DNA of 32,000 nt. Origin: Candidatus Heimdallarchaeota archaeon. Its GTDB lineage: Archaea > Asgardarchaeota > Heimdallarchaeia > JABLTI01. Position numbers and translations under genes: made by a program. The notes beneath the pieces were generated by a model. That model was not told where the DNA came from. It saw nothing but the letters and a program-made list of their open reading frames with translations, and did no database searches. The DNA is taken from NCBI GenBank assembly GCA_030614005.1, contig JAUWKS010000035.1, positions 1-32,000 on the forward strand, in the 5' to 3' direction. This document shows, piece after piece, positions 1 to 25,892 of this stretch (position 1 is the stretch's first letter; every line of letters begins with the position of its first letter).

Positions 1-344
1 CTAAAGAAGTAGATATAATCATTCTGAACAATCATATTGCTGTAATCCCCTGTGAGATCTGTAGAATATTTAAAGGAATCAACAACTATAGGCTGATCCT
101 TTATGCTAACATCATAGATTTCGAATCCGGTATATTGCTCAAGGAGGTAAACATAACTTCTATTAGCAAAGATTGTAGAACCCCCTCTTGTTATTTCATT
201 ATTTGTTTCTAATTCCTTTCCCAATAAAGAATTACATTGTGCGTTTTGATACCCTACTGTTTTAGTAATAGGTATCAATCCAATCATCAGAATTATTAAA
301 GCAAAGTAGTAAATAGATAGTCTGCTTTTATTGTTTTTAATCAT
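1..344 (-). CDS. Secreted or surface protein with LVIVD-like beta-propeller repeat (5' part only, runs off the window start)
   Basis: Not in the ORF track. ATG at 344 on the minus strand is open to the window edge: MIKNNKSRLSIYYFALIILMIGLIPITKTVG... (signal-peptide-like), then YVYLLEQYTGFEIYDVSIKDQPIVV, which fits the LVIVD repeat pattern. Confidence 0.65.
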   Translation of the reverse strand, partial: MIKNNKSRLSIYYFALIILMIGLIPITKTVGYQNAQCNSLLGKELETNNEITRGGSTIFANRSYVYLLEQYTGFEIYDVSIKDQPIVVDSFKYSTDLTGDYSNMIVQNDYIYFF

Positions 345-592
345 TTTTTCGCCCTCAAATAAATATAACTCTTATTTATATTAGCTGAAAACGAGTATTT
401 TAACCTTTATTTTCACAGAATATCTTAAAAAAATATTTTCGCATTTTATTGGTTTTTGAGCGATTCTCAAGTATTTAGTTAGAAGTAATGAGCAATGGCG
501 TTATCAGAAAAGAGATGCTGCTGCAAGAAAATTTGGAACTATTTAAATATCAAATTAAATAATAACTAAATAGGTTAAGGGTAGAGATTGAT

Positions 593-1399
593 TTGAAATT
601 AACTTTTGAAAAGAGAGCTGAATTGCTTGATAAAATAAGAGATGGTAAAAAAGTAAAAATAAAATGGCTATCAACTGTTTGTATGGTTTCTGCTGAAGAA
701 ATACTTGAGTTAGCTAACGAATATAAATTGTTTATTGATAAAGATAATTTCATTTATGCTCCGGAAGATGAAGGTCTTAGTAACAAAATAGATGAGGAAA
801 TTGATAAAACGGAGAAAGAAGAACTACTAAATTATTTGCGCCAACCTACAATCTTGGAACATACATTAAATCATGATGAGATAATTAAATTAGAATCGAT
901 TTTTATTTCCGATGGTTTTAAATTCAAACGTGATAGGAAAGGAATAATTCTTCATGATATATTGACAATAGATAAAATTGGACTTAAAGTAAAAAATGGT
1001 AATAGTACTCTTTGCAACATAAAATGGGTTGATATGAAGAATATTAAACTAACAAGTCAAACAGAAAAAGAGTATACAAAGAAGAAGAAATACAAATCAA
1101 GATTAATTATCTCATTTGCCTATGCGCTAGATAGAGCAAGTGGAGTTCAATCTGCATTAAGGAATGTGGATAATTTGGATCTTAATCCTATAAGGGTTGA
1201 AGCTTCTATTAAAACTTTTAACACGATTTTAATCACATCAGAAAAACAAAAAGATATCCTGTTAAATACTGCAGGTTTTAAATTAACAGGAAAAGTGTCT
1301 TTTCCCAAAGAATTAGACAGTCTAATTTACATTTTAGAACATTTCTTCCACAAAATGAAAAGGGAGCAGCTTGTCCACAATTCAAAAGAAAATAAATGA
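593..1399 (+). CDS. Hypothetical protein, 268 aa (soluble, Lys-rich)
   Basis: Long open frame with a TTG start. No family motif was recognised. Confidence 0.75.
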   Translation: MKLTFEKRAELLDKIRDGKKVKIKWLSTVCMVSAEEILELANEYKLFIDKDNFIYAPEDEGLSNKIDEEIDKTEKEELLNYLRQPTILEHTLNHDEIIKLESIFISDGFKFKRDRKGIILHDILTIDKIGLKVKNGNSTLCNIKWVDMKNIKLTSQTEKEYTKKKKYKSRLIISFAYALDRASGVQSALRNVDNLDLNPIRVEASIKTFNTILITSEKQKDILLNTAGFKLTGKVSFPKELDSLIYILEHFFHKMKREQLVHNSKENK

Positions 1400-1586
1400 A
1401 GTGAATTTAGAAAAACAGAGGATTCCATTTATCTGTTTTTTGGTTTGGAAAACTCATATTGAAATGGATGGTATTAGTTTACCCTTTCTGGTATTTGGTA
1501 CTCAGGGTTCAGAAATAGATTTATTTGTTGTTTTGGCTTCTTTAGCAATTGTTCCTATTTTCATAAGAAAAAGAAAGAAGAAATAA
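1371..1586 (+). other. Short ORF ending in a C-terminal membrane anchor (hydrophobic helix plus RKRKKK), possibly a gene remnant
   Basis: The C-terminus GSEIDLFVVLASLAIVPIFIRKRKKK has the TM-plus-basic-tail layout of archaeal surface-protein sorting signals. The rest is short and overlaps the upstream gene by 29 nt. Confidence 0.35.
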
Positions 1587-1808
1587 CTAATTCATGAATA
1601 TCTCTTTCCTCTCTTTTTATCATTTGTTAATAAATTAACAAGTTACAAAATCCAATGATTTTTTGAGGTTCTGGCAACTTCAAATCTTCATTAAGATTGC
1701 CTTCTTTACATTAGTACTTGAAAACTTGACTATTTTGGATCTATTATCTGTAAGAAACAGAATTTTTAAATGATAAAAATAGTTGTGTAATAGACCTTAA
1801 AAAATGAG

Positions 1809-2312
1809 GTGGGTTATATATTGAAACTTACAAGTCTTTGTTTAATTCAGATGGGATTAAATGGATTGGAATTAGTTAAAGCTTTTCCAGCTGTTTTGAC
1901 GAAAAAAGAAATGAATAAAATCATTTTTCAAAGTATACCTTTTGGAGCAAACGACGGAGATTTTTTTACAAGAACTATAAATAAAAGAGTTATTTGTGGA
2001 TATGTTTTTAGTGTTCATAAAATTGAAAAACAAAGATCAAACATTGCTACAATAACTGCTGTATTTGATTCAATGGATTTCCAACCAATTTTCATTAAGA
2101 ATGTGTTTTCTTTGATTATTCAAGAACTAAAGAACAACAATATACTATCAATCAATTTAATCGAAGAAATACTTCCAAAGATTTACGATGGATTAATTAA
2201 AAAATCTTTTAAAATAAAAGTAAACTCTGATGTAACATTGGAATTTGATTTTCCTCAAAATGAGGAAACAACAAAAAAGCCTTTCCAAAACTTTAGTGAA
2301 GATGTTTGGTAG
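1809..2312 (+). CDS. uDENN/longin-like domain protein (true start possibly TTG 1821)
   Basis: LCLIQMGLNGLELVKAFPAVLTKKEMNKIIFQSIPFG..GD...GYVF resembles the N-terminal uDENN pattern of DENND6/AVL9-type proteins (hydrophobic strand, G, then YP/FP, LT..E...I...S.P, GD, GYV). A GAGGTG ribosome-binding site precedes TTG 1821. Confidence 0.6.
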   Translation: MGYILKLTSLCLIQMGLNGLELVKAFPAVLTKKEMNKIIFQSIPFGANDGDFFTRTINKRVICGYVFSVHKIEKQRSNIATITAVFDSMDFQPIFIKNVFSLIIQELKNNNILSINLIEEILPKIYDGLIKKSFKIKVNSDVTLEFDFPQNEETTKKPFQNFSEDVW

Positions 2313-2391
2313 AAAAGAAAATTTATTTAGAAGATTTCATTTAAATTTAAAGAGGCGGTAAGCTAATTGGTGTCCTATATATTAAATTTTT

Positions 2392-3300
2392 TTGGAGGAA
2401 AAAAATAACTTGGCAATTAGTAGTTTTGTATTATTAATGATAAGTGTAAGTGCTATTGTAGCTACAGGCTCTCTTATCTTTTCATTTATTATGGTATGGA
2501 ATTTCTTCAAAAAGAAAACTATGGGAACAGCACTTTTAGCTTTTTTTTATGGAGCTATCGCAATATATCATATAGTTCATTCAGTAATGATGAGTATAGC
2601 AGCGCAAAATCCTTTTTCTCTTCCACATAAAATACTCTTTATTATTTATGTAGCAACACTACTATTGTCATACTATTATTTGTACGTATTTGCTTGTAGA
2701 CATATTTTTAGAGATAATGATTTCGTAAAGTCTTCAATAACTATTATTATGCTCGCTGCGAATGCCGCAATTATTGGTATGATGGCATATGAACTCATAC
2801 TAGATGTACCATCTCCAATCTTTTATGTCATAGATCCTAAACCAGAGTGGAATATAAGCCATTACGTACCTGTACCTTTAGTTTTATTAACACTTTATTT
2901 GACATGCGTTTTATTTGTTGAAATAAGAATTATTTTTAGACTATCATTAACTTTAATCAAGAAAGAAGTTGAAAACGATATTCAAAGAAAAGGACTTCAG
3001 CAAATTCTTTTTGGAATCTTATCTTTATTTGCTTCAGTACTACTCACAATTATAATCTCTTTACCCAATATCAATAACACACTCTTTTCTATCTTATATA
3101 TTTTAAGAGGAATGCTTACATTGCTAGGTTTACTATTGAGTTATATAGGTTGGATTCTTCCTGAATGGTATGTCAGAAGAGTAAGAAAGACATGGATAGT
3201 GTCAAAAATAACAAATGATAATGAAATAGAAACACCAAATACAAACTCCAAAACTTTCAATACGGTCGCAGAAAAAAATGATGAAATTGATGCGATGTAA
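2392..3300 (+). CDS. Seven-transmembrane protein with a cytoplasmic tail (7TM sensor-like)
   Basis: About 7 hydrophobic segments (roughly aa 9-37, 45-68, 81-103, 116-136, 160-182, 201-224, 231-254), then GWILPEW and a hydrophilic tail. There is no Lys in TM7. Confidence 0.7.
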   Translation: MEEKNNLAISSFVLLMISVSAIVATGSLIFSFIMVWNFFKKKTMGTALLAFFYGAIAIYHIVHSVMMSIAAQNPFSLPHKILFIIYVATLLLSYYYLYVFACRHIFRDNDFVKSSITIIMLAANAAIIGMMAYELILDVPSPIFYVIDPKPEWNISHYVPVPLVLLTLYLTCVLFVEIRIIFRLSLTLIKKEVENDIQRKGLQQILFGILSLFASVLLTIIISLPNINNTLFSILYILRGMLTLLGLLLSYIGWILPEWYVRRVRKTWIVSKITNDNEIETPNTNSKTFNTVAEKNDEIDAM

Positions 3301-3395
3301 TTTTTTCTAAATAAATTTGGAGTAAAAACTCCAATAAATCTTTTTTGAGAAATCATTTTTGGATTTTTTCTCCCTGCTTATTTCATTTCAAAAGC

Positions 3396-3444
3396 TTTAA
3401 ATATAAATGAGTATTACTCAATTATAATTGAGCACTGCTCATTT
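3396..3444 (+). promoter_or_regulatory. TATA box (TTTAAATA 3396-3403) followed by a 40-bp inverted repeat made of two TGAG-N5-CTCA operator sites
   Basis: aaatgagtattactcaattataattgagcactgctcattt (3405-3444) is a near-perfect palindrome. Sub-sites are tgagtattactca (3408-3420) and tgagcactgctca (3429-3441). Confidence 0.8.
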
Positions 3445-3491
3445 AACAATATTTATTGAGCAATAACATAAGAAAAATTGGTGATAATAAA

Positions 3492-5063
3492 ATGGACGAA
3501 ACCGTAAATCAAATCAAATTTCAAGAAAAAATAAGAAAATTTTTCAGCAAGATAAAACGAGAAACAATTATAGATTATATCTACCTACTAATAGGTTGTT
3601 TCTTTTTTGTATTCCTTGGTTGGCGATGGAACATGCCATTTGCAGCTTGGATTTCCCCGATATTTCTAATGAGATTCTTTAGAAATCAAAAGAAGTTTTG
3701 GCCTACACTTCTAGTTCTGCCTTTCTTAGCTCTAATTACTTTTCTAAAAATGAGAGATGGTTGGGATATTCCGATTTTATTCCAAATTTTATTAAGTGTT
3801 TTTGTACCCGTTCTATTTGTAATGGTTCCTCTCTATATGGATCGTTTTATTGCTAAAAGATATGAGTCAATTTTAGGTTCTCTTGTTTACCCATCAGTAA
3901 TAGTAATTATTGAATACCTTATTGGATTAACCTTACTTGGTTCAACGCTTGTTGTAGGCGGTACGCAATTTCACTTTGGTGTATTTGTTCAATTATCCTC
4001 AATTACAAGTATTTGGGGATTATCATTTCTGATATCTTGGACAGCTTCAGTAATAAACACCTTTTGGGAAAAAGACTTTAAATTCGACTTTAAAAAACCG
4101 CCCAAACTAGCAAAAATCTATGGTGTGATCATTATATCTACAATGTTATTTGGTGCACTTCGAGTAGCAATTTCAGATCCATCTTCACCTACTGTCCGGG
4201 TTGGGTCGATGTCAGTTGAACATCAAAGAGATTACTGGGGTGAAATTGTAGATAAACAAACACCTGCAGATGAAGCTTCATTGTACCTCCCGGAATTTCA
4301 AGCGTTAGAAGATCAATTGTTTTCAATGTCTGAGCAAGCAGTAAATGGCGGTGCAAAAATTGTTTTCTGGTCAGAAGGTAATTGTCCTTATTATGAAGAT
4401 TATGAGCAAGAATTTTATAATCGATCAAAAACTTTTGCAATTGAACATAATATCTACTTTGCTCCAGGTGTAGTCAAGTTCTACTATGATTCTTACATCA
4501 GCGACAATAAAGTGGTTATGTTTGATCCAAATGGCACGCTTGTTCTAGAGTACATTAAAACCAAATCATGGTATGAGACGTATTCTGATGGAATAATCCC
4601 TTCTGTCGATACTCCCTATGGCAAACTTGCTGTTACAATTTGTTTTGATAATGATTTTCCTAATTTCATTCGTCAAGTAGGTAAAGCAAAAGTCGATATT
4701 CTCTTAATGCCTGCTTTTGATGTTGTAGCTATAAAGGAATTTCATGCTGAAACTTCATTAATAAGAGGGATTGAAAATGGCGTCAATGTTGTCAGGCATG
4801 TCAATACGGGTTGTTCTTATGCTATTGACTATTTGGGAAATGTTATCGCATATCAAGACCATTTTGATACTGTTGAACGGATTATGTATTCCGATGTACC
4901 TACAGAAAGAACATTCACACTTTATTCTATTTTAGGTGATTGGTTTGCGTATACTAATTTTGCTCTAATGGTTCTCATAATAGTTGATTTTGTTTTTCGA
5001 CAAACAAAAAAGAGACCACTATTTTCTAAGAAAAAAATTATTGAAAGTTCCGATTCTGTTTGA
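3492..5063 (+). CDS. lnt: Apolipoprotein N-acyltransferase-like protein (membrane domain plus nitrilase/CN-hydrolase domain)
   Basis: Multi-TM N-terminus including QLSSITSIWGLSFLI. Nitrilase triad: Glu (VFWSEG), Lys (EYIKTK), Cys (TICFDNDFP). C-terminal TLYSILGDWF plus a TM helix, as in Lnt. The ORF is open from 3456, and ATG 3492 is the likelier start. Confidence 0.8.
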   Translation: MDETVNQIKFQEKIRKFFSKIKRETIIDYIYLLIGCFFFVFLGWRWNMPFAAWISPIFLMRFFRNQKKFWPTLLVLPFLALITFLKMRDGWDIPILFQILLSVFVPVLFVMVPLYMDRFIAKRYESILGSLVYPSVIVIIEYLIGLTLLGSTLVVGGTQFHFGVFVQLSSITSIWGLSFLISWTASVINTFWEKDFKFDFKKPPKLAKIYGVIIISTMLFGALRVAISDPSSPTVRVGSMSVEHQRDYWGEIVDKQTPADEASLYLPEFQALEDQLFSMSEQAVNGGAKIVFWSEGNCPYYEDYEQEFYNRSKTFAIEHNIYFAPGVVKFYYDSYISDNKVVMFDPNGTLVLEYIKTKSWYETYSDGIIPSVDTPYGKLAVTICFDNDFPNFIRQVGKAKVDILLMPAFDVVAIKEFHAETSLIRGIENGVNVVRHVNTGCSYAIDYLGNVIAYQDHFDTVERIMYSDVPTERTFTLYSILGDWFAYTNFALMVLIIVDFVFRQTKKRPLFSKKKIIESSDSV

Positions 5064-5188
5064 AAGGAACTTTCCAACTTTTCTTTTTCAAACAAGATAA
5101 TCAATTTTACATTTAAACATCAAAAATTAGTAATTTTATACTCTTATAGTATGTGTTTAGAAGAAAAGAATGGAGAAAATTTAATTAA

Positions 5189-5201
5189 CGAGCATTACTC
5201 A
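5189..5201 (+). promoter_or_regulatory. Third copy of the operator (cgagcattactca), 8 nt upstream of the TetR start codon
   Basis: It matches the two sites at 3408-3420 and 3429-3441 (consensus YGAG-YAYTR-CTCA). Confidence 0.7.
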
Positions 5202-5209
5202 CTAACTAT

Positions 5210-5830
5210 ATGGACGATAATCAAGAACCAAAATTCCATCGAGATAAAGAAGGAAAAATTAAACTTATTATTGAAACATTTGTGAGATTAATAATAGAAA
5301 AGGGTTACACAAATGTTAGTACAAATCTCGTAGCAAAAGAAGCAGGTTTAAGTATCGGTACAATTTATAATTATTTCAAAAGCAAAGAAGATATTTTACA
5401 TTCGGCATTCCAAGGAACAATTGAAGATTTCATTGACTTTTCAGATATAATAAAAATATTAACAACATACGATTACAAGACAACAAAAATGCTCGTTAGT
5501 AAATATCTCGCTAATCACAAGGAATACTATCAACTCCACAAAGCCCAAGATCAAGCAATTGCTATAAATCAAGACGTTTTTCATAATTACCAAAAAAATA
5601 TCGAAGATTATATTCGAGCATTTTCAGAACAAGTCCGGCAAAGTGTTGTTCAACTAGCAAAAATTCCTGCAGAAACAATTTCAAACGCTATGATGTTAAG
5701 TACTAATTTACTGGATACACTTGTGCATCAGCATCTCTTTCGAGTCTCATTTTTTGAAAATGACGAAGAATTTGTTGATTATGTTACAAAATTGTTTATT
5801 TTTACTCTCAAGCTCTACCTCAAAGAGTAA
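5210..5830 (+). CDS. TetR/AcrR family transcriptional regulator
   Basis: Classic N-terminal HTH: IIETFVRLIIEKGYTNVSTNLVAKEAGLSIGTIYNYFKSKEDIL. Confidence 0.95.
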   Translation: MDDNQEPKFHRDKEGKIKLIIETFVRLIIEKGYTNVSTNLVAKEAGLSIGTIYNYFKSKEDILHSAFQGTIEDFIDFSDIIKILTTYDYKTTKMLVSKYLANHKEYYQLHKAQDQAIAINQDVFHNYQKNIEDYIRAFSEQVRQSVVQLAKIPAETISNAMMLSTNLLDTLVHQHLFRVSFFENDEEFVDYVTKLFIFTLKLYLKE

Positions 5831-6075
5831 ATTCAGTAAATCAATTTCATATTAAAATACGATTTAATTTGACGGATAAAAAACGCTATTATATTAGATC
5901 CATATGTCAAATAAACAGTGAGCAAGAATCCAATAGTATCTATCAATCTTTGATGGATTTATTGTTTCAGTTGTACAATATTGAGGTTATTACTCTATTT
6001 ACATCAAAACGCAGATAGAATTTTTGTTATCTTGGAAGTAAATCCAATGTTTCTCTCAATAACGAATATTTTTAA

Positions 6076-9848: not shown

Positions 9849-11165
9849 ATGACTGTAAAAGACCTGAAAAAAGATTCTACTTCTTATAAAGAAACTCAAG
9901 AAGAATTAAAGAGATTAATGATGGCTGCAATTAATTACTACCAAAAAGGAGAATTCCAATCTGCTTTTATATATACAAAAAGATTGCAAAGACTTGCTCA
10001 TGAAATGAATGATGCATTGACTGAAGGTCAAGCATTATCAATGGATGGTAATATGCATTTTTCAATGGGAAATAATGAAAAAGCATTAGAAATTTCTAAA
10101 CAAATAATCAAGCAATTTCCAGATATTCCATATATTCAAGTTTCAGGATATAATTGTATTGGAATGATTAATCTGAAGGAAGGAAATATTAACGATGGTC
10201 TTAAGAATTTTAAAAAAGCATATAAAAACACAGAAAATGTGGATAATAAAGAAATTCATCGTATACGGATTCTAAGTAATATAGCAATAATCTATCGAAT
10301 AAAAGGTGATTTTAAAAATTCATTAGCAAACGTAAAGCAAAACCTTGAGCTTAGCAAACTAAATGAAGATCATTTTGGTTCTACTATATCATATGGAAAT
10401 GCTGGTCGATTATATATGGATTTTCTAAATTATAAGGACGCAATAATAAATTTTGAATCTTGTATATTCTATGCAAAAAAGATAGATGCCAAGATGTACA
10501 TTTTAGAACCTCAAATCCAAATCTGTGAATCTTTAATTATGTTAGGTGAATATGAACAAGCAGAAGTTGAGATGCGGAAAATGGAAAAAGTGTCTCAAAG
10601 TCTTAAAATTACTCAATTAATACCTGCTATAAAAACCACCACAGCTTTATGGATGTACAAAGCAAAAGGAGATCACAATGGTGCTCTGAGTCTTGTGAAG
10701 GAAGTAAACCAGCTTATCCAATCGTCCGAAAAATCATTCTTTTTTGAACATTTAGTTAAAAATTTAGCCGTAAAAATAATGATAGAACTTGATTTGGATA
10801 TGTTCCAGGAAGCGCTAGTTGATATTGAGGAAGCATTCGAAATAATTGAAAAGACAAATGCATTAGTTCAGTCTATTATCTTTTTAAATCTAAAAGGGTT
10901 ATTTAAATCTGCAGAATTTCAATTCGATGAAGCACAAAATCTACTTCAAAAAGCAATTAAACTTGCTACTGACTATGGTATAAAGAACCATTTAGAAAAA
11001 ACACAATCGAATTTAGACCTAATTCAAAACCTCGAAAGAGCCAATAATGCATATGATGTTGCTATTTCAGAACAACAGAAACAAGATAAAATGAACAAAG
11101 ATAAGATGGATTTGTTCTCATTTATCAAGGAATATGTTGAATATGCCCTTCCGAAGATACATTAA
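9849..11165 (+). CDS. Tetratricopeptide-repeat protein, 438 aa (paralog A)
   Basis: TPR-like helices (GYNCIGMINLKEGNINDGLKNFKKA, ILSNIAIIYRIKGDFKNSLA, SYGNAGRLY...YKDAI). Confidence 0.85.
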   Translation: MTVKDLKKDSTSYKETQEELKRLMMAAINYYQKGEFQSAFIYTKRLQRLAHEMNDALTEGQALSMDGNMHFSMGNNEKALEISKQIIKQFPDIPYIQVSGYNCIGMINLKEGNINDGLKNFKKAYKNTENVDNKEIHRIRILSNIAIIYRIKGDFKNSLANVKQNLELSKLNEDHFGSTISYGNAGRLYMDFLNYKDAIINFESCIFYAKKIDAKMYILEPQIQICESLIMLGEYEQAEVEMRKMEKVSQSLKITQLIPAIKTTTALWMYKAKGDHNGALSLVKEVNQLIQSSEKSFFFEHLVKNLAVKIMIELDLDMFQEALVDIEEAFEIIEKTNALVQSIIFLNLKGLFKSAEFQFDEAQNLLQKAIKLATDYGIKNHLEKTQSNLDLIQNLERANNAYDVAISEQQKQDKMNKDKMDLFSFIKEYVEYALPKIH

Positions 11166-11646: not shown

Positions 11647-14487
11647 TTGTATTACCATAATAAAACGATTGGAATTTTCTTCCTTTTTCTTCTATTTATT
11701 TCATCACAAACTTACATGATTGATAGTACTGCAGAAACGAATACTCAAGACAGCAATTTAGCTCCTAATTCTACATTTGCTTTTCTTTGGAATTTCACAC
11801 TTACTGATTATGTGGGTTATTTTCCTGTCATTGTTGATATAAATTCAGATGGAATATCTGAAGTGTTGGTAACTACAACCAATGGTTATTTATATTGTTT
11901 AGATAATTTAGGAAACATTCACTGGTCTGAAAACTTATATATTACTAGTAGGTGTTCTCCTACAGTAGTTGATATTAACAAAGATGGTTATCTTGAAATT
12001 CTAGTAACTTCTACTTCTTACCTTCTATGTATCAGTCATACTGGTCTAAAATTATGGGAAATACCTATTGGTTATAATGAGTATGATTCTCCTACGATTG
12101 CTGATTTAGATCAAGATGGTTATCTTGAAATTATTATACAAGCCAATGATAAAATTCGATGTATAAATTGGGATGGTACCAATAATTGGGAGTACACAAA
12201 TTCTGGTGTTACTGCCTCAGTTACTGTTGTAGCTGATCTAGATTCCGATGGTACTTTTGAGATTCTTTATAGTACTTTTGATAGTAAAATCATCTGTTTG
12301 AATCATTATGGTGTTAAAGAATGGGAGTATACAGTTGACATCGGAGTTATTCCTAATCTTGCAGTAGGCGATCTTGATGAGGATGGTACTAAAGAAGTAA
12401 TAATTGGTTCTGAAGATTCTATTTTACATTGTATTAATCATTTTGGAATTTTAGAATGGAAATATTTAACGAATGGGTCAATTTGTTCTGAACCTATAAT
12501 TGCTGATCTTGATAATGATGATCATTTAGAAATAATTTTTGGCTCTCTAGATTTCGGAATTTCCAGTAGTGTTTATTGCTTAAATCGTTTCGGTACATTT
12601 GAATGGAAATTTGTAAAGGATTATTCCATAAACGGGAAACTTCTTGTTGCTAACATAGATGGTGGTCATGATTTAGAAATTTTAGTACAATATAGTAATA
12701 ATAATTTATACTTGCTTAATTCCGCTGGTGCAGAGCAATTTTCTCAGGATCTTGGTGGTGAAATTCGCTTCATGTCATCTGGTTTTGTTAATGGCGATGA
12801 TGTAGCTGATCTAATTATTAGTAGAAAGTATGTAAAAGAATCTACTAATTATTATGAAATTAATTGCCTCACTTTTACTGGGATTAGTCAATCGGGTCCA
12901 CAACAATGGTATTGTTGTCGTGGTAGTTCTTTCCATACTGGTCAAATTGACTCTGATGGTGATTTCATTGATGATATGACTGAAGAGTTCTTTAACGGGA
13001 ATCCAAATCTTCAAGATACAGATTTTGATGATTTACCAGATGGTTGGGAAGTGTTTCATGGAACTAATCTGACAAATACAGATACAGATTTTGATGGTAT
13101 GCCTGATGGTTGGGAGGTTTATCATAACCTTAATCCTCGAGCTAATGATTCTTCTGTTGATAAGGATCTTGATGGACTAACTAATATCGAAGAATACAAT
13201 CTAGGAACAAGACCTGATTTAAAAGACTCAGATTTTGATGGTATGCCTGATGGTTGGGAAGTTCATAATAACTTAAATCCGCTAAGCAATGATTCAAACG
13301 AGGATTTAGATAATGATAATTTATCAAATAAAGCAGAATATGATGTTGAATCTGATCCAAATAATCCCGATACCGATTCTGATAATCTACTTGACGGTTT
13401 GGAAGTTCTCGGAATGTACTATCCATTAAACCCTGGTGCAAATACAGAAGGTTATGTTTATACCAATCCAATCTTAGCAGACTCGGATGATGACAATTAT
13501 AATGACGATGTAGAATTAGCTGCAAATACTGACCCAAATGACCCAAATGATCATCCAATAATGCCAGTGTGGTCTTGGTGGTTAACTGGTAGTTTAACAT
13601 TAGTAATATTTGCTATTATTATCATTTCTATTGCTATTTCGAATAAAAAGAGGAAAACACAAATAGTGGAAAATTCTGAACCGCTAGAGGAGGAGACGAA
13701 GGAAGCATTAAGCTATGAAGAAAAACAGGTAGAGGAAGAAAAACTAACGGAACTAATTAGACAAGAAGAACAAAAAATACGGACAGAAACAACAATAACT
13801 TTGCCTTCAAGTACAAGTAAAATTTCAGTTAAATTTTTAACAGACTTATTAAAAGCTAAATCTTTTATTATTATGGAAAACAGTGGCATTCCATTAATAT
13901 CACTTAATTTCACCCAAGATATTGATTCCACCCTTGCTTCAGGATTTCTCACAGCCATCACTAGTTTTGGTCAAGAAGTAATGTATAATGATCAACCTTC
14001 TAAAAGCAAATTTAGTCAAATGGGTCAAGAAGGAGGAATCTATTGGATTTTTGAGGGACGCAATGTGAGAGTTGCTCTATTATTTGAAAGTGAGCCCTCA
14101 AAAGAATTAAAGCGACATGTTTGGCAATTCTTGAAGCAATTTGAAAATGATTACCAAAAACAATTAGAAGCATTTACCGGGGAACTGTCGGTTTTTGAAA
14201 GTGCAAGAAACCTGCTAGAAGAGCATTTATTCATCAATTATTTGTACCCCATGAAATTAAATAGGCTAAAACTAACTGAAATCAGCTTAGATAACAACAT
14301 AGCAAAAGTGCTTGATAATTATCTTGAAAACTTCGATGATGAAGCTACATTAGATATTCATCAACTAATTGATAGGACATTTAAAGAGTTGAGAATTTTG
14401 TCTTTTGATGAGATTCTTCAACAAATAATTTACTATGTCGAAAATAACGTTCTTCTACCAATACCAATTACAATTACAGCCATGTAA
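11647..14487 (+). CDS. Single-pass surface protein: signal peptide, FG-GAP/VCBS-type propeller repeats, thrombospondin type-3-like Ca-binding repeats, TM helix, cytoplasmic longin/roadblock-like domain
   Basis: Repeated [AV]DLDxDGxxEI[IL]; repeated DTDFDGMPDGWEV; TM WSWWLTGSLTLVIFAIIIISIAIS followed by NKKRK; cytoplasmic SFIIMENSGIPLISLNF...DSTLASGFLTAITSFGQEV. A GGAGGA ribosome-binding site precedes the TTG. Confidence 0.8.
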   Translation: MYYHNKTIGIFFLFLLFISSQTYMIDSTAETNTQDSNLAPNSTFAFLWNFTLTDYVGYFPVIVDINSDGISEVLVTTTNGYLYCLDNLGNIHWSENLYITSRCSPTVVDINKDGYLEILVTSTSYLLCISHTGLKLWEIPIGYNEYDSPTIADLDQDGYLEIIIQANDKIRCINWDGTNNWEYTNSGVTASVTVVADLDSDGTFEILYSTFDSKIICLNHYGVKEWEYTVDIGVIPNLAVGDLDEDGTKEVIIGSEDSILHCINHFGILEWKYLTNGSICSEPIIADLDNDDHLEIIFGSLDFGISSSVYCLNRFGTFEWKFVKDYSINGKLLVANIDGGHDLEILVQYSNNNLYLLNSAGAEQFSQDLGGEIRFMSSGFVNGDDVADLIISRKYVKESTNYYEINCLTFTGISQSGPQQWYCCRGSSFHTGQIDSDGDFIDDMTEEFFNGNPNLQDTDFDDLPDGWEVFHGTNLTNTDTDFDGMPDGWEVYHNLNPRANDSSVDKDLDGLTNIEEYNLGTRPDLKDSDFDGMPDGWEVHNNLNPLSNDSNEDLDNDNLSNKAEYDVESDPNNPDTDSDNLLDGLEVLGMYYPLNPGANTEGYVYTNPILADSDDDNYNDDVELAANTDPNDPNDHPIMPVWSWWLTGSLTLVIFAIIIISIAISNKKRKTQIVENSEPLEEETKEALSYEEKQVEEEKLTELIRQEEQKIRTETTITLPSSTSKISVKFLTDLLKAKSFIIMENSGIPLISLNFTQDIDSTLASGFLTAITSFGQEVMYNDQPSKSKFSQMGQEGGIYWIFEGRNVRVALLFESEPSKELKRHVWQFLKQFENDYQKQLEAFTGELSVFESARNLLEEHLFINYLYPMKLNRLKLTEISLDNNIAKVLDNYLENFDDEATLDIHQLIDRTFKELRILSFDEILQQIIYYVENNVLLPIPITITAM
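13085..13259 (+). repeat. 31-nt exact direct repeat inside the Ca-binding repeat region
   Basis: cagattttgatggtatgcctgatggttggga occurs at 13085-13115 and 13229-13259 (spacing 144 nt = 48 codons), an intragenic repeat expansion. Confidence 0.85.
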
Positions 14488-14747
14488 ACTACTTGAAGAT
14501 GGATTGTAAACAAAGTTTACTATCCAAATCTATTTTTCTAATTTCCATAGAATAATATAATTAATTTAGAATAAATATGGATGTATATAATAATCTAAAT
14601 TTGATAACAAATTAAATGGATTAAAAAGTGATAATTTATTGTTGTTTTTCTATAACTTTTATTGCTTTTAAATAAACATTCTTAACGCCATAATAATAAT
14701 TCCTTAAGGTAAAAAAAAGAATCACTTGAAGAATTTTTTACATATAC

Positions 14748-16787
14748 TCATTTCTTTTCTTGAAGTTTATTTTCTAGGATTACCGCAAATAATTTTACAA
14801 TTGATTCGAAGAAATCTCGATCGTCTTTTGGGATTTCTTTTGGTTTTTGTGAGCCAAGTTGTAGAGTTCCTAAAAGATTTTTATTGGAATCAAGGATTAC
14901 AAGAGATATAAGAGACTGGGTGTTGAATACTGCTAAACGTTCCTTATATTTCTCTAATATTTTGCTCTTTGAAATATCAGGTGCAAAAATAGCTTTCTTA
15001 GTACTTGCTACTAAAGAAGGTATGGACTTTAGATCATCAACTGGCATTGGTAAGATCTTTCTTTTATCATCTTCACTGAAACCAGTTAATGCTACTGGTT
15101 CTAAAAGGCCTGAATCTTTATTGAAGTGTCTAATTGTTCCAAATTCAAATCCAAGCGTTTCGCTTACTCCTGCTATAAACAAATTGCACATTTCAAAAGG
15201 ATCATCTGCATTCATTGTTGATTCTGCAATAATACGAAAAGTATCTCTATCGCGTTTCAAAGTCGCTTTCACTTGTGTCCAAAGAAGTCTATCATCAAAT
15301 GAAGCTAAAATGCCTTTTACACAACCTTTTAGATCTTTTAAAGGAACTATCTTTAAATTTAGAACTGTTTTTTTTCCCCATTTTGAAATGTAAGTTCTTT
15401 CTGAAAAAATATCCTTACCAGTATCTATACACTGTTGAATATCATTTGATATACCAACTTCAACGAGAAGTGGGAAAGTCAATAAATTAATCTTTTTAGT
15501 CTCTTCTGCAGAAGGAGAACCAAGAATCGTTAAAGCCGTTTTATTTACACTTTGAATGTTTCCATTTAAATCACAGTTTAAAATACCAATAGGCGTTTCT
15601 TGAAACAATTTCATATATTCCTCTCTGCTTTTTCTTAAAGCTTCTTCAGCTTGCTTTCTCTCTGTTATATCTATAATCAAACCTTCCATATGTTTTTTCT
15701 CTTGATTTAAGCTTGCATGTTCTGCTCCCCAAAAAATGGAGCCATCTTTTCGAACTAATTTTACTTCATAATTATGAATGACTCCTACTTTTAGGAGCTT
15801 TCTAACAATTTTCTCTCTTGTTTTATCATTTTGATATAATAATTTTGCAGATATTTTTTTGAATTCTTCTACTGACGAGTAACCAAACATCTCAACTAGT
15901 CTAGAGTTTGCTTCTAAAATTTCTCCTGTATCTTGATTGGTCCTAAACAAACCTACAACAGCATTCTCAAACAAATTCATATAATTTAGTTCACTCTCTT
16001 TATTCTCTGTATTATCAATCATTACTGCTGATATTGATAATAGCTTTCCTTCAAGATTAAATGTACCAATGTTAAATTGTAACCACCATCGTTCTTCATC
16101 ATTTGCAGTTATTATCTTGTATTCAAGTGTCTTAGGAACAATTCCCTTTTGCATATCATTAAAATTCTTTAAGAAGTATTCATGGAAATCTGGATGAATA
16201 ATTTTTTCAATGAAATTTGGTGTTTCTTTCCAATCTCTAATTGAATACCCACTTAAGATTTCCAAGAATTTATCAACCAAAGTATATTTCCCAGAAGGGA
16301 GTTCCATTTTCAAAAAACCTCTGATTTTTTTTGAAAGTTCTTGGTAGTTTTCCTCAAATTCTTCTATCATTTGCTCTAGTTGAGTAACTTTGTGTTCTAA
16401 GTCTTTCTGATAAGTTCGTTTGTTCTTTTCTAATATTGCTCTCTTAATAATTGGGTTTAATCGTATTGATAAATCGGATTTAGGTATATAATCAACTGCA
16501 CCTTTCTTCAGAGCCTCAAGAGCTGCAGAATCATCAATCACTCCTGAGACTATAATAAATGGTGTTTCTGGGGATTCTACTATTGCGATTTCTAATGCTG
16601 CTAAACCATCAAAATTGGGTAAATGATAATCAGCTAAAATTAATTCAAAATCACCTTTTTGAAGAGCTTTAACAAAGTCCTCTCTAGTCTCGACATGCTG
16701 TACAGAACAATCACTACACTCATCAAGTAATATTTCTTTTAGAAGTTTATAATCATTTAAATTATCTTCTAAATAAAGTATCTTCAG
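14748..16787 (-). CDS. Response regulator receiver (REC) + PAS x3 + C-terminal GAF protein, with no kinase domain
   Basis: The frame is open 82 codons upstream of the track start (GTG 16541) and encodes a full receiver: LKILYLEDN...ELILADYHLPNFDG...FIIVSG...DYIPK. Candidate start is CTG 16787. PAS motifs include IIHPDF and FENAVVGLFRT/FQETPIGI, and the GAF has GTIRHFN...LLGTLQLGS. Confidence 0.85.
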   Translation of the reverse strand: MKILYLEDNLNDYKLLKEILLDECSDCSVQHVETREDFVKALQKGDFELILADYHLPNFDGLAALEIAIVESPETPFIIVSGVIDDSAALEALKKGAVDYIPKSDLSIRLNPIIKRAILEKNKRTYQKDLEHKVTQLEQMIEEFEENYQELSKKIRGFLKMELPSGKYTLVDKFLEILSGYSIRDWKETPNFIEKIIHPDFHEYFLKNFNDMQKGIVPKTLEYKIITANDEERWWLQFNIGTFNLEGKLLSISAVMIDNTENKESELNYMNLFENAVVGLFRTNQDTGEILEANSRLVEMFGYSSVEEFKKISAKLLYQNDKTREKIVRKLLKVGVIHNYEVKLVRKDGSIFWGAEHASLNQEKKHMEGLIIDITERKQAEEALRKSREEYMKLFQETPIGILNCDLNGNIQSVNKTALTILGSPSAEETKKINLLTFPLLVEVGISNDIQQCIDTGKDIFSERTYISKWGKKTVLNLKIVPLKDLKGCVKGILASFDDRLLWTQVKATLKRDRDTFRIIAESTMNADDPFEMCNLFIAGVSETLGFEFGTIRHFNKDSGLLEPVALTGFSEDDKRKILPMPVDDLKSIPSLVASTKKAIFAPDISKSKILEKYKERLAVFNTQSLISLVILDSNKNLLGTLQLGSQKPKEIPKDDRDFFESIVKLFAVILENKLQEKK

Positions 16788-17201: not shown

Positions 17202-19382
17202 TTGAACGTACCCCGAGATTTCAAAGTCTCAGAAATTGAAAAACTCGTTTACAAAGGACTGTTTGATAAGGCAATAGATACGATTAGCAAAAAAATTACA
17301 AATAGAGATTTAACTATTGATGAAAAATTGAGATTACTTATTCTTAATAGTAATGTAACATACAGACAGGGGAGATATAAGGATTCATTAGTATTGGCAG
17401 AAGAAGCACTGGAAAAGTGTCAAAAGTATAATGATCCTTTACTCGAAACAGATGCATTAATTGAAGTAGCTTCTTCATTATATCGTCTTGGTCGTTTTGA
17501 CGAAAGTTTGGCAATTGTTGAGCGAGGTGAAGAAATTCTTCAAAAGCATGCTGATGTGGAAACTCTACCAGGTAACTCCAGAATGGGTGGGTTGATCAAT
17601 ACAAAAGCCTATATTTATCTTTATACGGGGCAAATAGATCAAGCTTTGAAATTCTATTTAAAACATATTCCAATTTTAGAAAAAAATGCTAACAAAGAAC
17701 ACATTGCTACTGCATTGATAAATATGGGGTTGATAAACAAGGCCAAAGGAAATCTAAAACGAGCACTGATCTATTGCGAAGAAGGGTTGAAATTGAGAGA
17801 AAAAATTGGCAATAAGCAGGATATTGCAGTTGCTTTGAATAATGCTGGGTTGGTTTTACTTTCAAAAGGTGAGTATGATCGTGCATTAGACTATTTCAGT
17901 AAAGGCTTGAAAACTTTCTAGTATACTAATAATAAACATCATATTGCTATGTCCCTAAATAATATTGGACTTATATTTTTGGAAAAGAGTAATTTTGACA
18001 ATGCATTCATTAATTTCAAAAAAGCACTTCTCGCTTTCACTGAAATAGGAAATAAACATAATATTGCTACAACAACAAATAATCTAGGTATTATCTGTCA
18101 TCAGAAAGGAGACTTTGATCAAGCATTAGAATATATGAAACAAAGTTTAGAAGTATTCAAAGAAATTAAGAATGAACAATTAACAGCTTATTTATTGTAT
18201 AATATCGGTTGTATTTACCATCAAAAAAGAAATTTGCCTTTATCTTTAGAATTTCTAAAAGAAAGTTTGGAAATAAAAGAAAAACTCAATAATAAAATTT
18301 CTATCTCTGAATCCCTATTTGAATTAATATATGTCTTTGTTGACATGAACTCCATTAATCAAGCAATGAAATATTTGAAGAAATTACAAGAGATCAATGA
18401 AGAAAACAAAAATAAACTGATTAACCAGTTAACTCTCGTTGGAGAAGGTTTGATACTAAAGAGTAGTAAACGAGCTCGTGATTTTGGAAGAGCCGAAGAA
18501 TTATTTGAACAAGTAGCCAATGACGAGATAATTAAACTAGAAATAACTATACTAGCAATGTTAAATCTTGGTGATTTATTTCTGAAGGAATTAACGCTCA
18601 ATAATGAAGAAGAAATATTTAATGATTTTAATTCCCTCGTTAAAAGATTGTATGAAATAGCAAAAGAACAAAAATCTCATTGGTTACAAGCAGAAACGTT
18701 ATGGTTAAAAGCGAAATTAAGATTAGTGAACTTGGAACCATTTGAAGCACAGAAACTATTAACACAAGCTGAACAAATCACCAAAGAAAGGGGATTAAAA
18801 AGATTAGCAATGAAAATCTCTAGTGAACTTGATGATATGCTTAAACAATATGATACGAAAGAGAAGATTGCGAAAAAAGAGATTTCATTGTCGCAAAGAA
18901 TGAAATCTGTTAATCTAGAAGGGCTAGTAAAGACAATGACTCGGATGGGTGATGTAGATGTTTCATCAAATAATATGGAAACACCAGTGCTTATGCTAAT
19001 AATGACAACAGATGGGTTAGCAATTTTCTCAAAGCAATTCGTCTCTGAGAAACTTGATGATTTGCAAATAGGGGGATTTTTATCATCAATGAATAGCTTT
19101 CTCCAAAGAACAATAGCACCTCTAGGAACAGTTGATCGAATTAAATATTTGAACTATACGTTGCTATTTAAGTCAATTGAGAATGTTCTCTTATGCTATA
19201 TCTTTAAAGGAGAATCATATTTTGCTCTCGAAAAAATTGATAATTTCTTGAAGGTTTTTCATGATTCATCACCAATTTGGCAATATATCAATGAATTCCT
19301 TCAAACAGGTCAACAATTCAATCCTGAAGCGACTTCAGTAGTGAATAATCTCATTGATGAAATTTTCCTAGCAAGTTCTTGA
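17202..19382 (+). pseudogene. TPR protein with C-terminal longin/roadblock-like domain, interrupted by one in-frame TAG at 17919-17921 (pseudogene, sequencing error or readthrough)
   Basis: Track ORFs 17202-17921 and 17949-19382 are in the same frame. Reading through gives YFSKGLKTF*YTNNKHHIAMSLNNIG, a continuous TPR repeat. C-terminal LMLIMTTDGLAIFSKQF...IGGFLSSMNSF is longin-like. Confidence 0.8.
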
Positions 19383-19509
19383 TGATATAAAAAGAGAAAA
19401 GGATTTGCTGGATTTCTACTTTCACTTAAACTTGTGTTGATTTTATTTATTATTTTACCATATTCTAAATAATTATAAACGACAAAAATAATCAATTAAT
19501 TGGTAAATA

Positions 19510-20826
19510 ATGACTGTAAAAGACTTGAAAAAAGAATCTTCTTCTAAAGAAGAAATCCATGAAGAAATGAAAAGATTGAAAAAAGCTGCTATTTCATCTT
19601 GCCAAAAAGGGGAGTTCCAATCAGCATTTGTATATACAAAAAGATTACAAAGACTTACTAATGAAACAAATAGTAAGACGCTTGAAGGACAAGCATATTT
19701 ACTTGATGCTCAAATTTATTTCACAATGGGTAATCATAAGAAAACGCTAGAACTGACTAAACAAATAATCAAGCAATTTTCAAAAATACCTGTTGTTAAA
19801 GCTTCCTGTTTTAATATAATTGGCTTAATACATTTAAATAGAGGAAATTTCAGTGAGAGTCAAAAATATTTTAAGAAAGCACTTAGAAAAATTAAAAGAG
19901 TTGAGAATTCACAGACTAATAGTTATCGGATTCTATGTAATGTATCAACTATTTATCGGATACAAGGTGATTTTGATAAATCATTATCTACTCTCAATAA
20001 AGTCATTGAGCTAAGTGTAAAAAAACAAGATGAACTTAGTTTACTTTTAGCCTATGGAAATACTGGCAATCTGTATTTGGACTTTCTTATGTATAAGGAA
20101 GCAATAGAAAATTTTCAATCCTGTATACACTATGCTGAAAAGATAAGTGCCCGAAAGCATATTTTAGAAGCTCTACCTCAACTATCTGAAGCTCTGATCA
20201 TGTTAGGTGACTATGAACAAGCTGAAAAAGAAATCAAAAAAGCAAAAACACTAGCTGAGGATCTTGGAATAACTCAATTAATAGCTCTTACAAAAACTAT
20301 CTCCGCTTTATGGTTATACAAAGCAAAAGGAGATCATAATGGTGCTCTAGCTATTGCAAATGAAGTAAATCAGCTTTTCCACACATCTGAAGAAATATTG
20401 GATTATGAATATTTAGTTAGAAATTTAGCGGTAAAAATTATGATAGAACTTGATTTGAATCTATTTCAAGAAGCATTAATTGATATTGAGGATGCATTAA
20501 AAATAATCACCAAATCAAATGCAATAGTCCAGACTATCATATTTTTAAATCTAAAAGGGTTAATTAAATCTTCAGAATTTAATTTTAAAGAAGCACAAAA
20601 AGTTTTACAAACAGCAATTCAGCTTGCAACTAAACATGGTATAAAAAACCATTTAGCAAAAACAAAATGTAATTTGGACTTAATTAAAAACATCGAAAAA
20701 GCTAATAAAGCATATGATGTTGCAATCTCAACTCAACAGAAAGAAGATAAGATGAACCTGGATAAAGTGGACTTACTCGTAATCATTAAGGATTATGTTG
20801 AATATGCTCTCCCAAAGATCAGTTAG
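19510..20826 (+). CDS. Tetratricopeptide-repeat protein, 438 aa (paralog B of 9849-11165)
   Basis: Same length as paralog A, with 40 of the first 60 aa identical by eye and a shared end (YVEYALPKI). The 58-nt upstream regions are also homologous. Confidence 0.9.
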   Translation: MTVKDLKKESSSKEEIHEEMKRLKKAAISSCQKGEFQSAFVYTKRLQRLTNETNSKTLEGQAYLLDAQIYFTMGNHKKTLELTKQIIKQFSKIPVVKASCFNIIGLIHLNRGNFSESQKYFKKALRKIKRVENSQTNSYRILCNVSTIYRIQGDFDKSLSTLNKVIELSVKKQDELSLLLAYGNTGNLYLDFLMYKEAIENFQSCIHYAEKISARKHILEALPQLSEALIMLGDYEQAEKEIKKAKTLAEDLGITQLIALTKTISALWLYKAKGDHNGALAIANEVNQLFHTSEEILDYEYLVRNLAVKIMIELDLNLFQEALIDIEDALKIITKSNAIVQTIIFLNLKGLIKSSEFNFKEAQKVLQTAIQLATKHGIKNHLAKTKCNLDLIKNIEKANKAYDVAISTQQKEDKMNLDKVDLLVIIKDYVEYALPKIS

Positions 20827-21103: not shown

Positions 21104-21247
21104 GCATGAATGAATGAACTACTTTTTCGAATTTTCAAAAGACTAGTTTAAACTAACCAAATAAAAAACAAATTTTACTTAAAAAGTGTTTATCCAAAAA
21201 GTATTTCAATAATTTAACAGTAACTGATGTTCAAGGACGAGTTTATA

Positions 21248-21601
21248 ATGACCAGGGTGCTAATAGTAGAAGATAATACAAATCTACGAATGATTTTTAA
21301 GATGATTCTAAGTGATGACTTCGAAACTTTCGAAGCAAAAAATGGACTAGAAGCAATTGAGCAATATAATCAACATTCCCCTGATTTAGTTTTAATGGAT
21401 ATCCTTATGCCTGAAATGGATGGCATTGAAGCAACAAAAGAGATAATGAAGATAAATTCTGAAGCAAAAATTGTCGCAATAACAGCTTATTCTTCAAGGT
21501 CGGACGAAATAATTCAAGCAGGGGCAATTGAAGTTCTTAAGAAACCGATTAGAAAGAATGTTCTTATTCAGAAAGTTAAGGAATTTGTCGGTACTGCTTA
21601 A
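21248..21601 (+). CDS. Single-domain response regulator (CheY-like)
   Basis: MTRVLIVEDN...DLVLMDILMPEMDG...AITA...VLKKP, with all conserved receiver residues present. The ORF is open from 21227. Confidence 0.95.
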   Translation: MTRVLIVEDNTNLRMIFKMILSDDFETFEAKNGLEAIEQYNQHSPDLVLMDILMPEMDGIEATKEIMKINSEAKIVAITAYSSRSDEIIQAGAIEVLKKPIRKNVLIQKVKEFVGTA

Positions 21602-21815
21602 ATTAGATAAATACTATCTATTAACCTTGTATTTCATGAAATATGTTTACAAACAACAATTTTACTGTTTGAGCTATAAGGTTTGGTTCAATAATTTATT
21701 CTTAGTATTAAACTATTATCTGAAGTTACTTTATTTGTTCTAAATTTGGTTAAAAGAATTTTTATACAACAATGAACTATTAAAGTTATTATTTACATAG
21801 ATAGGTGGAAGGTTA

Positions 21816-24800: not shown

Positions 24801-24851
24801 GGTAGTACATTCACAATAAACTTACCCATCGGTTTAAGTAAGAAGGGATAA
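21816..24851 (+). CDS. Multi-PAS/GAF sensor histidine kinase
   Basis: Several PAS/PAC repeats. H-box GHELRNPLGSI, N-box NLINNGIQA, G1 DTGIGM, F-box LFEPLYTTK, G2 GIGLGL. Confidence 0.95.
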   Translation: MNDSNLELILDAMPGGLQILNEKGKCTHVNKVFLKMLGRKKADFIGKAFCEVSPPITSPKYSKTIATQIKKQLKTGESKSRLEIDIIDRSGKKIFVHFISNVLQDDKGKISGILCVFRDRTVEKQATEHLEARTKELGESEEWLSTMLRCIGDAIIATDSKGNVRFLNPVAESLTGWKQSDAIKKPVQEIFNIINEKSREEVENPVERAIREGVVVGLANHTILLSKDGKEIPIDDSGAPIKDKEGNITGAVLIFRDITERKKAEEELNIKDIAFCASLSAQSIADKNGIIYLVNPAFIELWGYSSSEEAIGNSVGSFFFNSNDAEPILKALTETGQWKGEFLAKKQDGSKFISQGFASAIYSDKGEHIGFQSANLNITERKKVEEELEQKTMELNERYKELNCLYGISKLKSKENLSLEDFIMKSVELIQPALQYPEITCARIILEEKEYKTANFKETQWCLNASIITRERKIGLLDICYLEEKPILFEGPFLKEERNLINSLAIFIGDYITNLQVDKELKKYSEQLEEMVETRSKQFIESENRLNEFINSSTEIFILLDSELNFKMINDIGLKFYGLTQKEFINRNISEIIPGFKQTARYKEYYNVIKTGISVSFDDTITFNNREIVLNIRAFKVVEGLGLIYTDITEKHLAEEKLRKSEASLSLAQRIAHLGSWDLDIINNILTWSNEVYRMFDLTPQEFAATHEAFMERVHPDDREIVQAAVDKAWEDKGLYSIDHRIILKDDSERFVHEHAEIISDEHGNAIRMIGTVQDITEKKLLEEKIAKQEKLALLGRLVGGIGHELRNPLGSIKNAAYFLKLVIDDADPEVKETLTILEKEVNASEKIITNLLSFASTKPLVKVKININEIIEKTLAHIVVPNNIKIETRLSKKIPIVYADPDQLTQVLLNLINNGIQAIENEGKLIIKTSSKDSESIVIEISDTGIGMSKEVQKRLFEPLYTTKAKGIGLGLVITKTIIEKHNGNIQIQSEVSKGSTFTINLPIGLSKKG

Positions 24852-24855
24852 TACA

Positions 24856-25599
24856 ATGTCAAATACGAACATTCTGATAGTAGATGATAACATAAATCTC
24901 TCTAAAACCCTGGCTTTTATCTTGCAAAAGAAAGGTTATTCTATAGATACTGCTGAAAGTGGTGCTGAAGCTATTGCAAAAATCAAAGAAAAAAGCTATT
25001 ATCTAATCTTTCTCGATATCAAAATGAATGTAATGAACGGTGTTGAAGCTTTTAAGAAAATTAAGGAAATCGATTCTAATGTCGTTGTAATAATGATGAC
25101 AGCTTATGCTGTTGAAGATTTAATCCAAGAAGCGTTGAAGGAAGGAGCATTTGGAATTCTATACAAACCGTTGAATTTCAATAAATTAATCTCTCTTATT
25201 GAAAAATCTAAGGAAGAACAAGCTAGCATCCTCATCAGTATAATAGATGATAGTGAAGGAATAAGAACTACCTTAGAAAACATCTTTAATAAAAAAGGCT
25301 ATAAAACTACAGTTGCTGAAACAGGAGAAGAAGCTATAGCTTTTGCAAAGACAAATCAATGCGATGTATTTATCATCGATATGAAACTTCCAACAATAAA
25401 TGGACTGGAAACTTACTTAGCTCTTAAATATATTTGTCCAAAAGCAGTTGCTATACTAATATCTGGTCATAGTCAAGAAATGGATGACTTGATAAATTCA
25501 GCTCTAAGTCAAACTGCCTATACCTGTTTGCAGAAACCGCTTGACATGGAAGTTCTTTTGCAAATTGTTGATGGAATTCGCACCGATTTAAAAAATTGA
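24856..25599 (+). CDS. Tandem double-receiver response regulator (REC-REC)
   Basis: ILIVDDN...IFLDIKM...MMTA...LYKP, then ISIIDDS...FIIDMKLP...LISG...LQKP. It starts 4 nt after the kinase stop. Confidence 0.95.
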   Translation: MSNTNILIVDDNINLSKTLAFILQKKGYSIDTAESGAEAIAKIKEKSYYLIFLDIKMNVMNGVEAFKKIKEIDSNVVVIMMTAYAVEDLIQEALKEGAFGILYKPLNFNKLISLIEKSKEEQASILISIIDDSEGIRTTLENIFNKKGYKTTVAETGEEAIAFAKTNQCDVFIIDMKLPTINGLETYLALKYICPKAVAILISGHSQEMDDLINSALSQTAYTCLQKPLDMEVLLQIVDGIRTDLKN

Positions 25600-25892
25600 A
25601 ATTTGTCTTGTATTTTTATGGTAAATTAGATATTAAGCAAATATTGTTATCAAAAACTGATTTGAGAAATTAGCTTATATTTTAATTTACCTATTGTAAA
25701 TGAACAATTATACTTAGATAAAAATGAAATTTCATTATGAGATATAGATAATGTTCCAAAACAAACTTTTATTATTAAAAATATCTATTATAATAATTTA
25801 AAGAGATGAGATAATATCTGAATGAACCAATAAAAATCTAATTTGTATTCATTTCGATAATAAGCAATGTTTTCCTATTAAACAATAGCTTT

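Follow-up and report, generated by a model that had tools for sequence, protein, structure and literature searches.

The window analysed here is a stretch of 32,000 nucleotides from the genome of a Candidatus Heimdallarchaeota archaeon (contig JAUWKS010000035.1, positions 1 to 32,000), and two co-oriented genes lie close together near its left end. The first open reading frame spans 1809-2312 (+; 167 aa from a GTG start) and the second 2392-3300 (+; 302 aa from a TTG start), which confirms the coordinates and the 79-nt gap given in an earlier note on this DNA. For both genes a start further downstream is likelier: TTG 1821 for the first, giving 163 aa and accompanied by a ribosome-site-like GAGGTG at 1806-1811, and TTG 2410 for the second, giving 296 aa, with a similar site, GGAGG, at 2394-2398. 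Close homologs in the databases are called at exactly these lengths, and with the likelier starts the gap becomes 97 nt. As judged from its structural model and fold matches, the first gene (1821..2312, +) would encode a longin protein of the NPRL2/FLCN/SMCR8 type; the second (2410..3300, +) is predicted from model and loop charges to encode an orphan seven-helix membrane protein, here called the 7TM. The spacer between them (2313..2409, +) is the place where three-gene copies of this arrangement carry a gene of about 180 codons for an Arf-family GTPase. We looked for a remnant of such a gene in the spacer and detected none. A 19-codon frame at 2302-2361 resembles an Arf N-terminal helix and was rejected as chance: two orthologous spacers differ there, with frames of 22 and 7 codons and other residues. 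Directly after the 7TM stop codon lies a terminator-like hairpin (3317..3334, +), a consensus match only, from a scan that gave 3 sites against 0.5 expected. Promoter matches stayed below chance level, and an Rfam search of window positions 1-6000 returned no match.

The surroundings of the pair can be described briefly. Downstream, 3456-5063 (+) encodes a membrane protein that ends in a carbon-nitrogen hydrolase domain (Pfam E 4.6e-16), in the architecture of an apolipoprotein N-acyltransferase; at the orthologous locus L042 this gene likewise comes after the pair. Upstream, a 268-aa frame without Pfam match (593-1399, +) is absent from the same position in both orthologous loci examined (L012, L042). 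Further away the window holds PAS/GAF sensor proteins, a histidine kinase and receiver proteins (14748-16541 and 21227-32000), with no sign of a tie to the pair, as well as several TPR-repeat genes (9849-11165 and 17202-20826), of which the adjacent frames 17202-17921 and 17949-19382 may be a single split gene.

The model of the small protein (pLDDT 85) has five strands and three helices in longin order, to which a short hairpin and a loose tail are added. The closest folds are the NPRL2 chains of GATOR1 and SEA (Foldseek E 4e-7; VIA Z 14.9-15.4, rmsd 3.2-3.5 over 152-162 residues), followed by an Asgard longin (Z 13.3) and folliculin, FLCN (Z 11.4-11.9). DENN chains score lower than NPRL2 and FLCN, at Z 9.7-10.1 (DENND1A 9.7, DENND10 10.1). 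An Atlas feature match carries PF06218 (NPR2) on 19% of its members. Pfam and PDB sequence and profile searches gave no sequence-level link of the longin to NPRL2 or DENN, and neither the longin nor 34 relatives matched a DENN, uDENN or AVL9 profile in Pfam. The earlier note had assigned this protein to uDENN by a DENND6/AVL9 pattern. A longin fold of the uDENN-like kind is indeed what the model predicts; the DENND6/AVL9 label itself is not confirmed, as Pfam gave no such match and NPRL2 and FLCN lie closer by fold. The model consists of a longin and a short extension only, and all 36 cassette homologs measure 161-183 aa. A search for longer fused forms found none, which is weak evidence. Because the central and downstream DENN lobes are missing, we place the longin outside the DENN GEF family.

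Could a receptor nevertheless use it as a DENN-type GEF, switching on a Rab-like GTPase as had been proposed? The fold is shared with uDENN at the Z scores given above, and many longin proteins are GEF subunits (PMC12290439). However, a protein of 163 aa without the other DENN lobes, without a Pfam DENN match, about 5 Z units nearer to NPRL2 and bearing an invariant arginine at the presumed finger position is not what such a GEF would be expected to look like. Moreover, the GTPase linked to this family is of the Arf type and not Rab-like. We therefore consider this reading quite improbable; a role as GEF and the choice of Rab both appear to have been mistaken, since fold and arginine point to the GAP-type longins NPRL2, FLCN and SMCR8, and the GTPase of the family, lost from the window copy, is an Arf.

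The arginine in question, Arg72 (2034..2036, +), is invariant in 35 of 35 aligned cassette longins, including all 10 copies whose locus has no Arf gene, and in the model it sits in the loop between strands 4 and 5. Arg78 of NPRL2 lies in the corresponding loop. Arg72 may accordingly be regarded as a candidate arginine finger, matched by its position in the fold and not by residue-level superposition. GAP-type longins are defined by an arginine finger together with a GP motif at strand 2, and proteins of this kind have been reported in Asgard archaea (PMC12290439). Half of that motif is kept here: by alignment, Gly15-Leu16 (1863..1868, +) stands at the GP position at the start of strand 2, where Gly15 is conserved and the proline is replaced by leucine in the subfamily of the window. 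Distant family members have G-P in the same alignment columns plus the arginine, and one close ortholog has arginine in place of Gly15. From these features we infer that the protein would act as a GAP-type longin. Stand-alone longin paralogs with acidic tails have lost the conserved arginine. One of them is the sixth longin paralog of this genome, on contig C21 (L006:1393-1953, -); it stands alone and ends in a long acidic tail after a Trp. Similar copies lie not far from a gene for an HtrA-like protease in several genomes (L022, L048, L053). The C21 protein is a candidate for a non-catalytic partner in the manner of NPRL3 or C9orf72.

The model of the membrane protein (pLDDT 85) shows seven helices and a C-terminal helix 8, and the outer loop that joins helices 4 and 5 forms a beta-hairpin. 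From its loop charges, with loops 1, 3 and 5 and the C-tail following the positive-inside rule, the N-terminus should lie outside and helix 8 inside. The best 50 fold matches are all GPCRs, GPCR-like designs or rhodopsins: GPCRs of several classes reach Z 13-16.6 (the best with rmsd 3.8 over 222 aligned residues) and the microbial rhodopsin KR2 reaches Z 14.3. Top shape matches in the Atlas are HisKA_7TM clusters (TM 0.63-0.67; feature lead 0.86), and PF16927 gave no Pfam match. A Pfam profile search with 20 members of the 7TM family found nothing, nor was there a PDB sequence match. The sequence has neither a DRY nor an NPxxY motif, helix 7 has no lysine that could bind retinal, and no kinase, cyclase or hydrolase output domain is fused to the protein. 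The GPCR topology without kinase or cyclase output described earlier is thus borne out. When 1.84 billion representatives were searched with the 7TM profile, the matches listed (n=150) were at most 398 aa long; in the three longest the additional segment is a low-complexity tail, part of a second 7TM or a tail without assignment, and none of them shows an output domain or a recognisable longin. The invariant positions are concentrated in the cytoplasmic loops and helix ends, and between paralogs the outer loops diverge and the inner face is conserved; the cytoplasmic motifs persist after loss of the Arf gene. Judged from the model, the 7TM is an orphan with a GPCR/rhodopsin fold and appears receptor-shaped, a shape that says nothing of function.

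Longins of adaptor complexes bind membrane cargo, and the 7TM might be no receptor at all: it might be a membrane anchor, a carrier or a cargo that is regulated or sorted by the longin and the Arf. A eukaryotic precedent is PQLC2, a seven-helix transporter that recruits the C9orf72-SMCR8 Arf GAP (PMC8213707). PQ-loop transporters are not among the fold matches listed for the 7TM, although they may still be related. The uniform composition of the best 50 matches and the combination of diverged outer loops with a conserved inner face, a pattern of receptor families, both stand against this explanation, which we hold to be improbable.

Conservation of the gene neighbourhood supports the pairing of the two genes. 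Five of the six longin paralogs of this genome are followed by a 7TM paralog, all five 7TMs are paired in this way, and relatives show the same linkage. The longin-7TM linkage exceeds chance. Three of the five pairs have an Arf-family GTPase gene (~180 aa) between longin and 7TM, and among 36 cassettes across relatives the Arf is intact in 24, broken in 2 and missing in 10. Hence the earlier suggestion of a tie to small-GTPase regulation stands, since most copies hold an Arf-family gene between the two. The cassette GTPases match Pfam Arf at E 4e-37 to 4e-43, show weak Pfam G-alpha matches and begin with an amphipathic-looking helix. Members of the close family turned up in two families of the class, in a search set with many incomplete genomes. 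Gene trees of longin, Arf and 7TM largely agree, and therefore the cassette was copied as a block. A pattern scan of metagenomes gave no match. In other families of the class, most distant 7TM homologs are immediately preceded by a longin-like gene of another, classical type, and no GTPase gene is present.

Several further loci resemble the cassette in part. Three loci of a sister family (L023, L033, L072) have a GP-motif longin followed by two membrane proteins and no GTPase, the second membrane protein being a distant homolog of the window 7TM where scored (L023, L072). Contig C123 of this genome (27537-29652, -) encodes a 156-aa soluble protein ending in Trp and then two paralogous membrane proteins, both distant homologs of the window 7TM. 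Two further Arf-like GTPase genes of this genome are clustered with a multi-pass membrane protein on contig C119 (1311-6218), together with two soluble proteins of ~300-360 aa that, judged by eye, resemble DENN or longin proteins. On contig C16 a GTPase with an inserted segment (13827-14579, -) lies 1.5 kb upstream of the other Arf-less pair of this genome; it is encoded on the opposite strand, and a nitroreductase-like gene separates the two. Two stand-alone Arf-like genes (C9:70311 and C73:19161) were considered as the displaced partner of the window pair and were rejected; they fall outside the cassette GTPase clade and have long branches.

The rooted 7TM tree places the clade of the window copy and that of its C16 paralog together as sisters (96/89) inside a group of Arf-bearing cassettes. 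Next to them, as sister group, stand one locus with an intact Arf and one in which the Arf is stopped at the P-loop lysine. A second Arf-less clade lies elsewhere in the tree, and a single origin of the Arf-less copies is rejected (p-AU 1.8e-10); the GTPase has therefore been lost at least twice. In the lineage of the window the Arf was lost once and the two-gene pair was then duplicated. The window pair is a two-gene form, still maintained, that derives from a cassette of longin, Arf GTPase and 7TM in Heimdall-group Asgard archaea.

Has the pair simply been left behind by a dead cassette, as a decaying remnant? Broken members of the family do exist: the Arf of L014 (2021-2557, +) has a TAA at the P-loop Lys codon and that of L050 has two stops, the 7TM of L055 has two stops, the 7TM of L043 ends at 112 aa, and the longin of L051 is interrupted. 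These cases represent decay or assembly error. Both window genes are intact, however, the Arf-less layout persists across 7TM copies that are only ~35% identical, and it was duplicated. In Arf-less pairs dN/dS amounts to 0.14-0.26 for the longin and 0.16-0.26 for the 7TM; both genes are still under purifying selection, which largely refutes decay and leaves it very improbable.

Arf-bearing pairs give dN/dS values of 0.05-0.09 for the longin and 0.18-0.38 for the 7TM (all values by simple codon counting, with some dS near saturation). We also compared longin and 7TM protein distances, using independent pairs with no branch in common. For 4 Arf-less pairs the longin/7TM ratio is 0.95-1.63, and for 10 Arf-bearing pairs it is 0.23-0.80; the two ranges do not overlap (p=0.001), and without the Arf the longin evolves ~2.6-fold faster relative to the 7TM. 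The constraint imposed by an Arf in cis is thus seen on the longin and not on the 7TM, which fits a contact between longin and Arf. Relaxed selection on the longin after Arf loss could also mean that its contact with the GTPase is fading, and not that it has been redirected.

This last point leads to a module that works independently of any GTPase, in which the longin, after loss of the Arf, would serve only as the soluble adaptor or output of the 7TM, perhaps as in the operons of classical longin and 7TM. The relaxation just described is in line with it, as are the two independent losses that were tolerated, one of them followed by duplication, and the fact that longin-7TM operons without GTPase are common in the class. 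Yet Arg72, Asn74, Glu17, Pro23 and Pro40 are retained in all 10 Arf-less copies, whereas the stand-alone paralogs with acidic tails have lost the arginine. We regard such a module as unlikely.

The selection data bear also on a wiring of the GPCR kind, where the 7TM would bind the Arf and promote nucleotide exchange while the longin served as a separate off-switch; the window would then hold an extra receptor and GAP that share their G protein in trans. G-alpha is related to the Arf family, and the weak G-alpha matches of the cassette GTPases recall this kinship. The GPCR-like fold with helix 8 (Z up to 16.6), the conserved cytoplasmic face and the translational closeness of the Arf gene to the 7TM in 24 cassettes can be counted in its favour too. 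However, loss of the Arf in cis relaxes the longin and leaves the dN/dS of the 7TM unchanged, and at the loci of distant 7TM homologs a longin-like gene is the partner, with no GTPase present. As matches to the 7TM, microbial rhodopsins (Z 14.3) and HisKA_7TM (TM 0.67) are about as good as GPCRs, and DRY and NPxxY are absent. Such wiring seems to us rather doubtful.

A second tie between longin and 7TM may be found at the end of the longin, which closes with Asp-Val-Trp-stop (2301..2312, +). A Trp within the last 6 residues occurs in 41 of 42 NPRL2-type longins adjoining a 7TM vs 1 of 17 standing alone, in 11 of 11 classical longin-like proteins before a 7TM and in 6% of like-sized open reading frames; the kin counted are not independent and the independent lineages few, and the counts describe a tendency without testing it. 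A Trp codon next to a stop can also have a role in an overlapping start codon or a ribosome site. The Trp is still present where the next gene begins ~95-140 nt away. By sequence the Asp-x-Trp tail is a candidate docking motif for the 7TM. A complex prediction for 7TM and longin from paired alignments of 35 rows scored 0.12 vs a mark of 0.32 and counts neither for nor against such docking.

The best reading of these data, with a probability of about 0.45 by our estimate, is that the 7TM is a sensor and recruits the longin, which in turn would act as a GAP-type protein on paralogous Arfs in trans. The 7TM would sense a signal from outside or from the membrane through its variable outer loops, and its conserved cytoplasmic face would bind the longin, probably through the terminal Asp-x-Trp tail. 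As a GAP-type regulator the longin would act through Arg72. Having no GTPase of its own, it might act on the Arfs of the three intact cassettes or on stand-alone Arf genes; supply in trans is proposed because the genome has those three cassette Arfs and several stand-alone Arf-like genes besides. The window pair would thus add a further input to a shared Arf switch. It might even be possible that longin and 7TM form the core of an Asgard signalling unit, with the tail docking a GPCR-fold receptor whose ligand controls an arginine-finger Arf GAP, but this wider proposal is doubtful.

Comparison with known systems sets the pair into context. Like GATOR1 (NPRL2-NPRL3), FLCN-FNIP and C9orf72-SMCR8-WDR41, the window locus has a longin with its fold nearest NPRL2, a conserved arginine at the presumed finger position and the glycine of the GP motif, and like these eukaryotic longin GAP complexes the cassette ties the longin to an Arf-family GTPase and a seven-helix membrane protein. 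Eukaryotic longin GAPs work as heterodimers, and C9orf72-SMCR8-WDR41 is an Arf GAP recruited by PQLC2 (PMC8213707). In contrast, the window longin is a single domain of 163 aa with no DENN lobes, GL in place of GP and no second longin subunit in the window operon; and PQLC2 is a transporter, whereas the fold search assigns the window 7TM a GPCR/rhodopsin fold. The longin belongs to the same structural class as the GP-motif/arginine-finger longins (PMC12290439) and the NPRL2-like longins (bioRxiv 10.1101/2020.10.19.343400) of Asgard archaea. These two studies name no such partner genes, whereas here gene order and selection point to Arf; the question which GTPases such longins serve, ArfR or Rag, has been raised (PMC12290439). 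The middle gene of the three-gene copies is of the Arf family, as are Asgard ArfR (bioRxiv 10.1101/2024.02.28.582541) and AArf (PMC11914678), for which operons, neighbours and transmembrane partners are not mentioned in those reports; the window copy differs in having no GTPase. With GPCRs, rhodopsins and HisKA_7TM the 7TM shares the seven helices, the predicted outside N-terminus, a helix 8 and the beta-hairpin in the second outer loop, but unlike them it has no sequence match, DRY/NPxxY, retinal lysine or fused kinase or cyclase, and its partner is a longin. Unlike a GPCR with a heterotrimeric G protein, only a monomeric Arf-type GTPase is linked, and even that is absent from the window copy. 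Finally, the Asgard operon of roadblock, Rab-like GTPase and DENN (bioRxiv 10.1101/2020.10.19.343400) likewise links a small GTPase to eukaryote-like regulators, although with another GTPase class, a true DENN protein and no membrane protein.

In conclusion, Asgard Arf GTPases, Asgard NPRL2-like longins and a eukaryotic Arf GAP with a 7TM recruiter have each been published separately, and a search of the literature accessible without subscription found no paper on a longin / Arf / 7TM cassette. The contribution of the window is a lineage without the Arf, together with its history, the contrast in selection and the pattern of Trp tails. Native partners of Asgard Arfs and GAP-like longins are unpublished, and the cassette supplies matched sets of longin, Arf and 7TM as testable partners. 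The Arf-less copies amount to a natural deletion experiment: the longin is relaxed, the membrane protein is not, and the pair is kept together. This contrast supports a longin-Arf contact and a separate tie between longin and 7TM. If the wider proposal of a ligand-controlled Arf GAP were true, these archaea would possess a prokaryotic receptor-controlled regulator of a eukaryote-type Arf switch, and Arf-less copies would feed extra signals into a shared GTPase. Control by a ligand, if shown, would bear on the origin of receptor control of small GTPases before eukaryotes.
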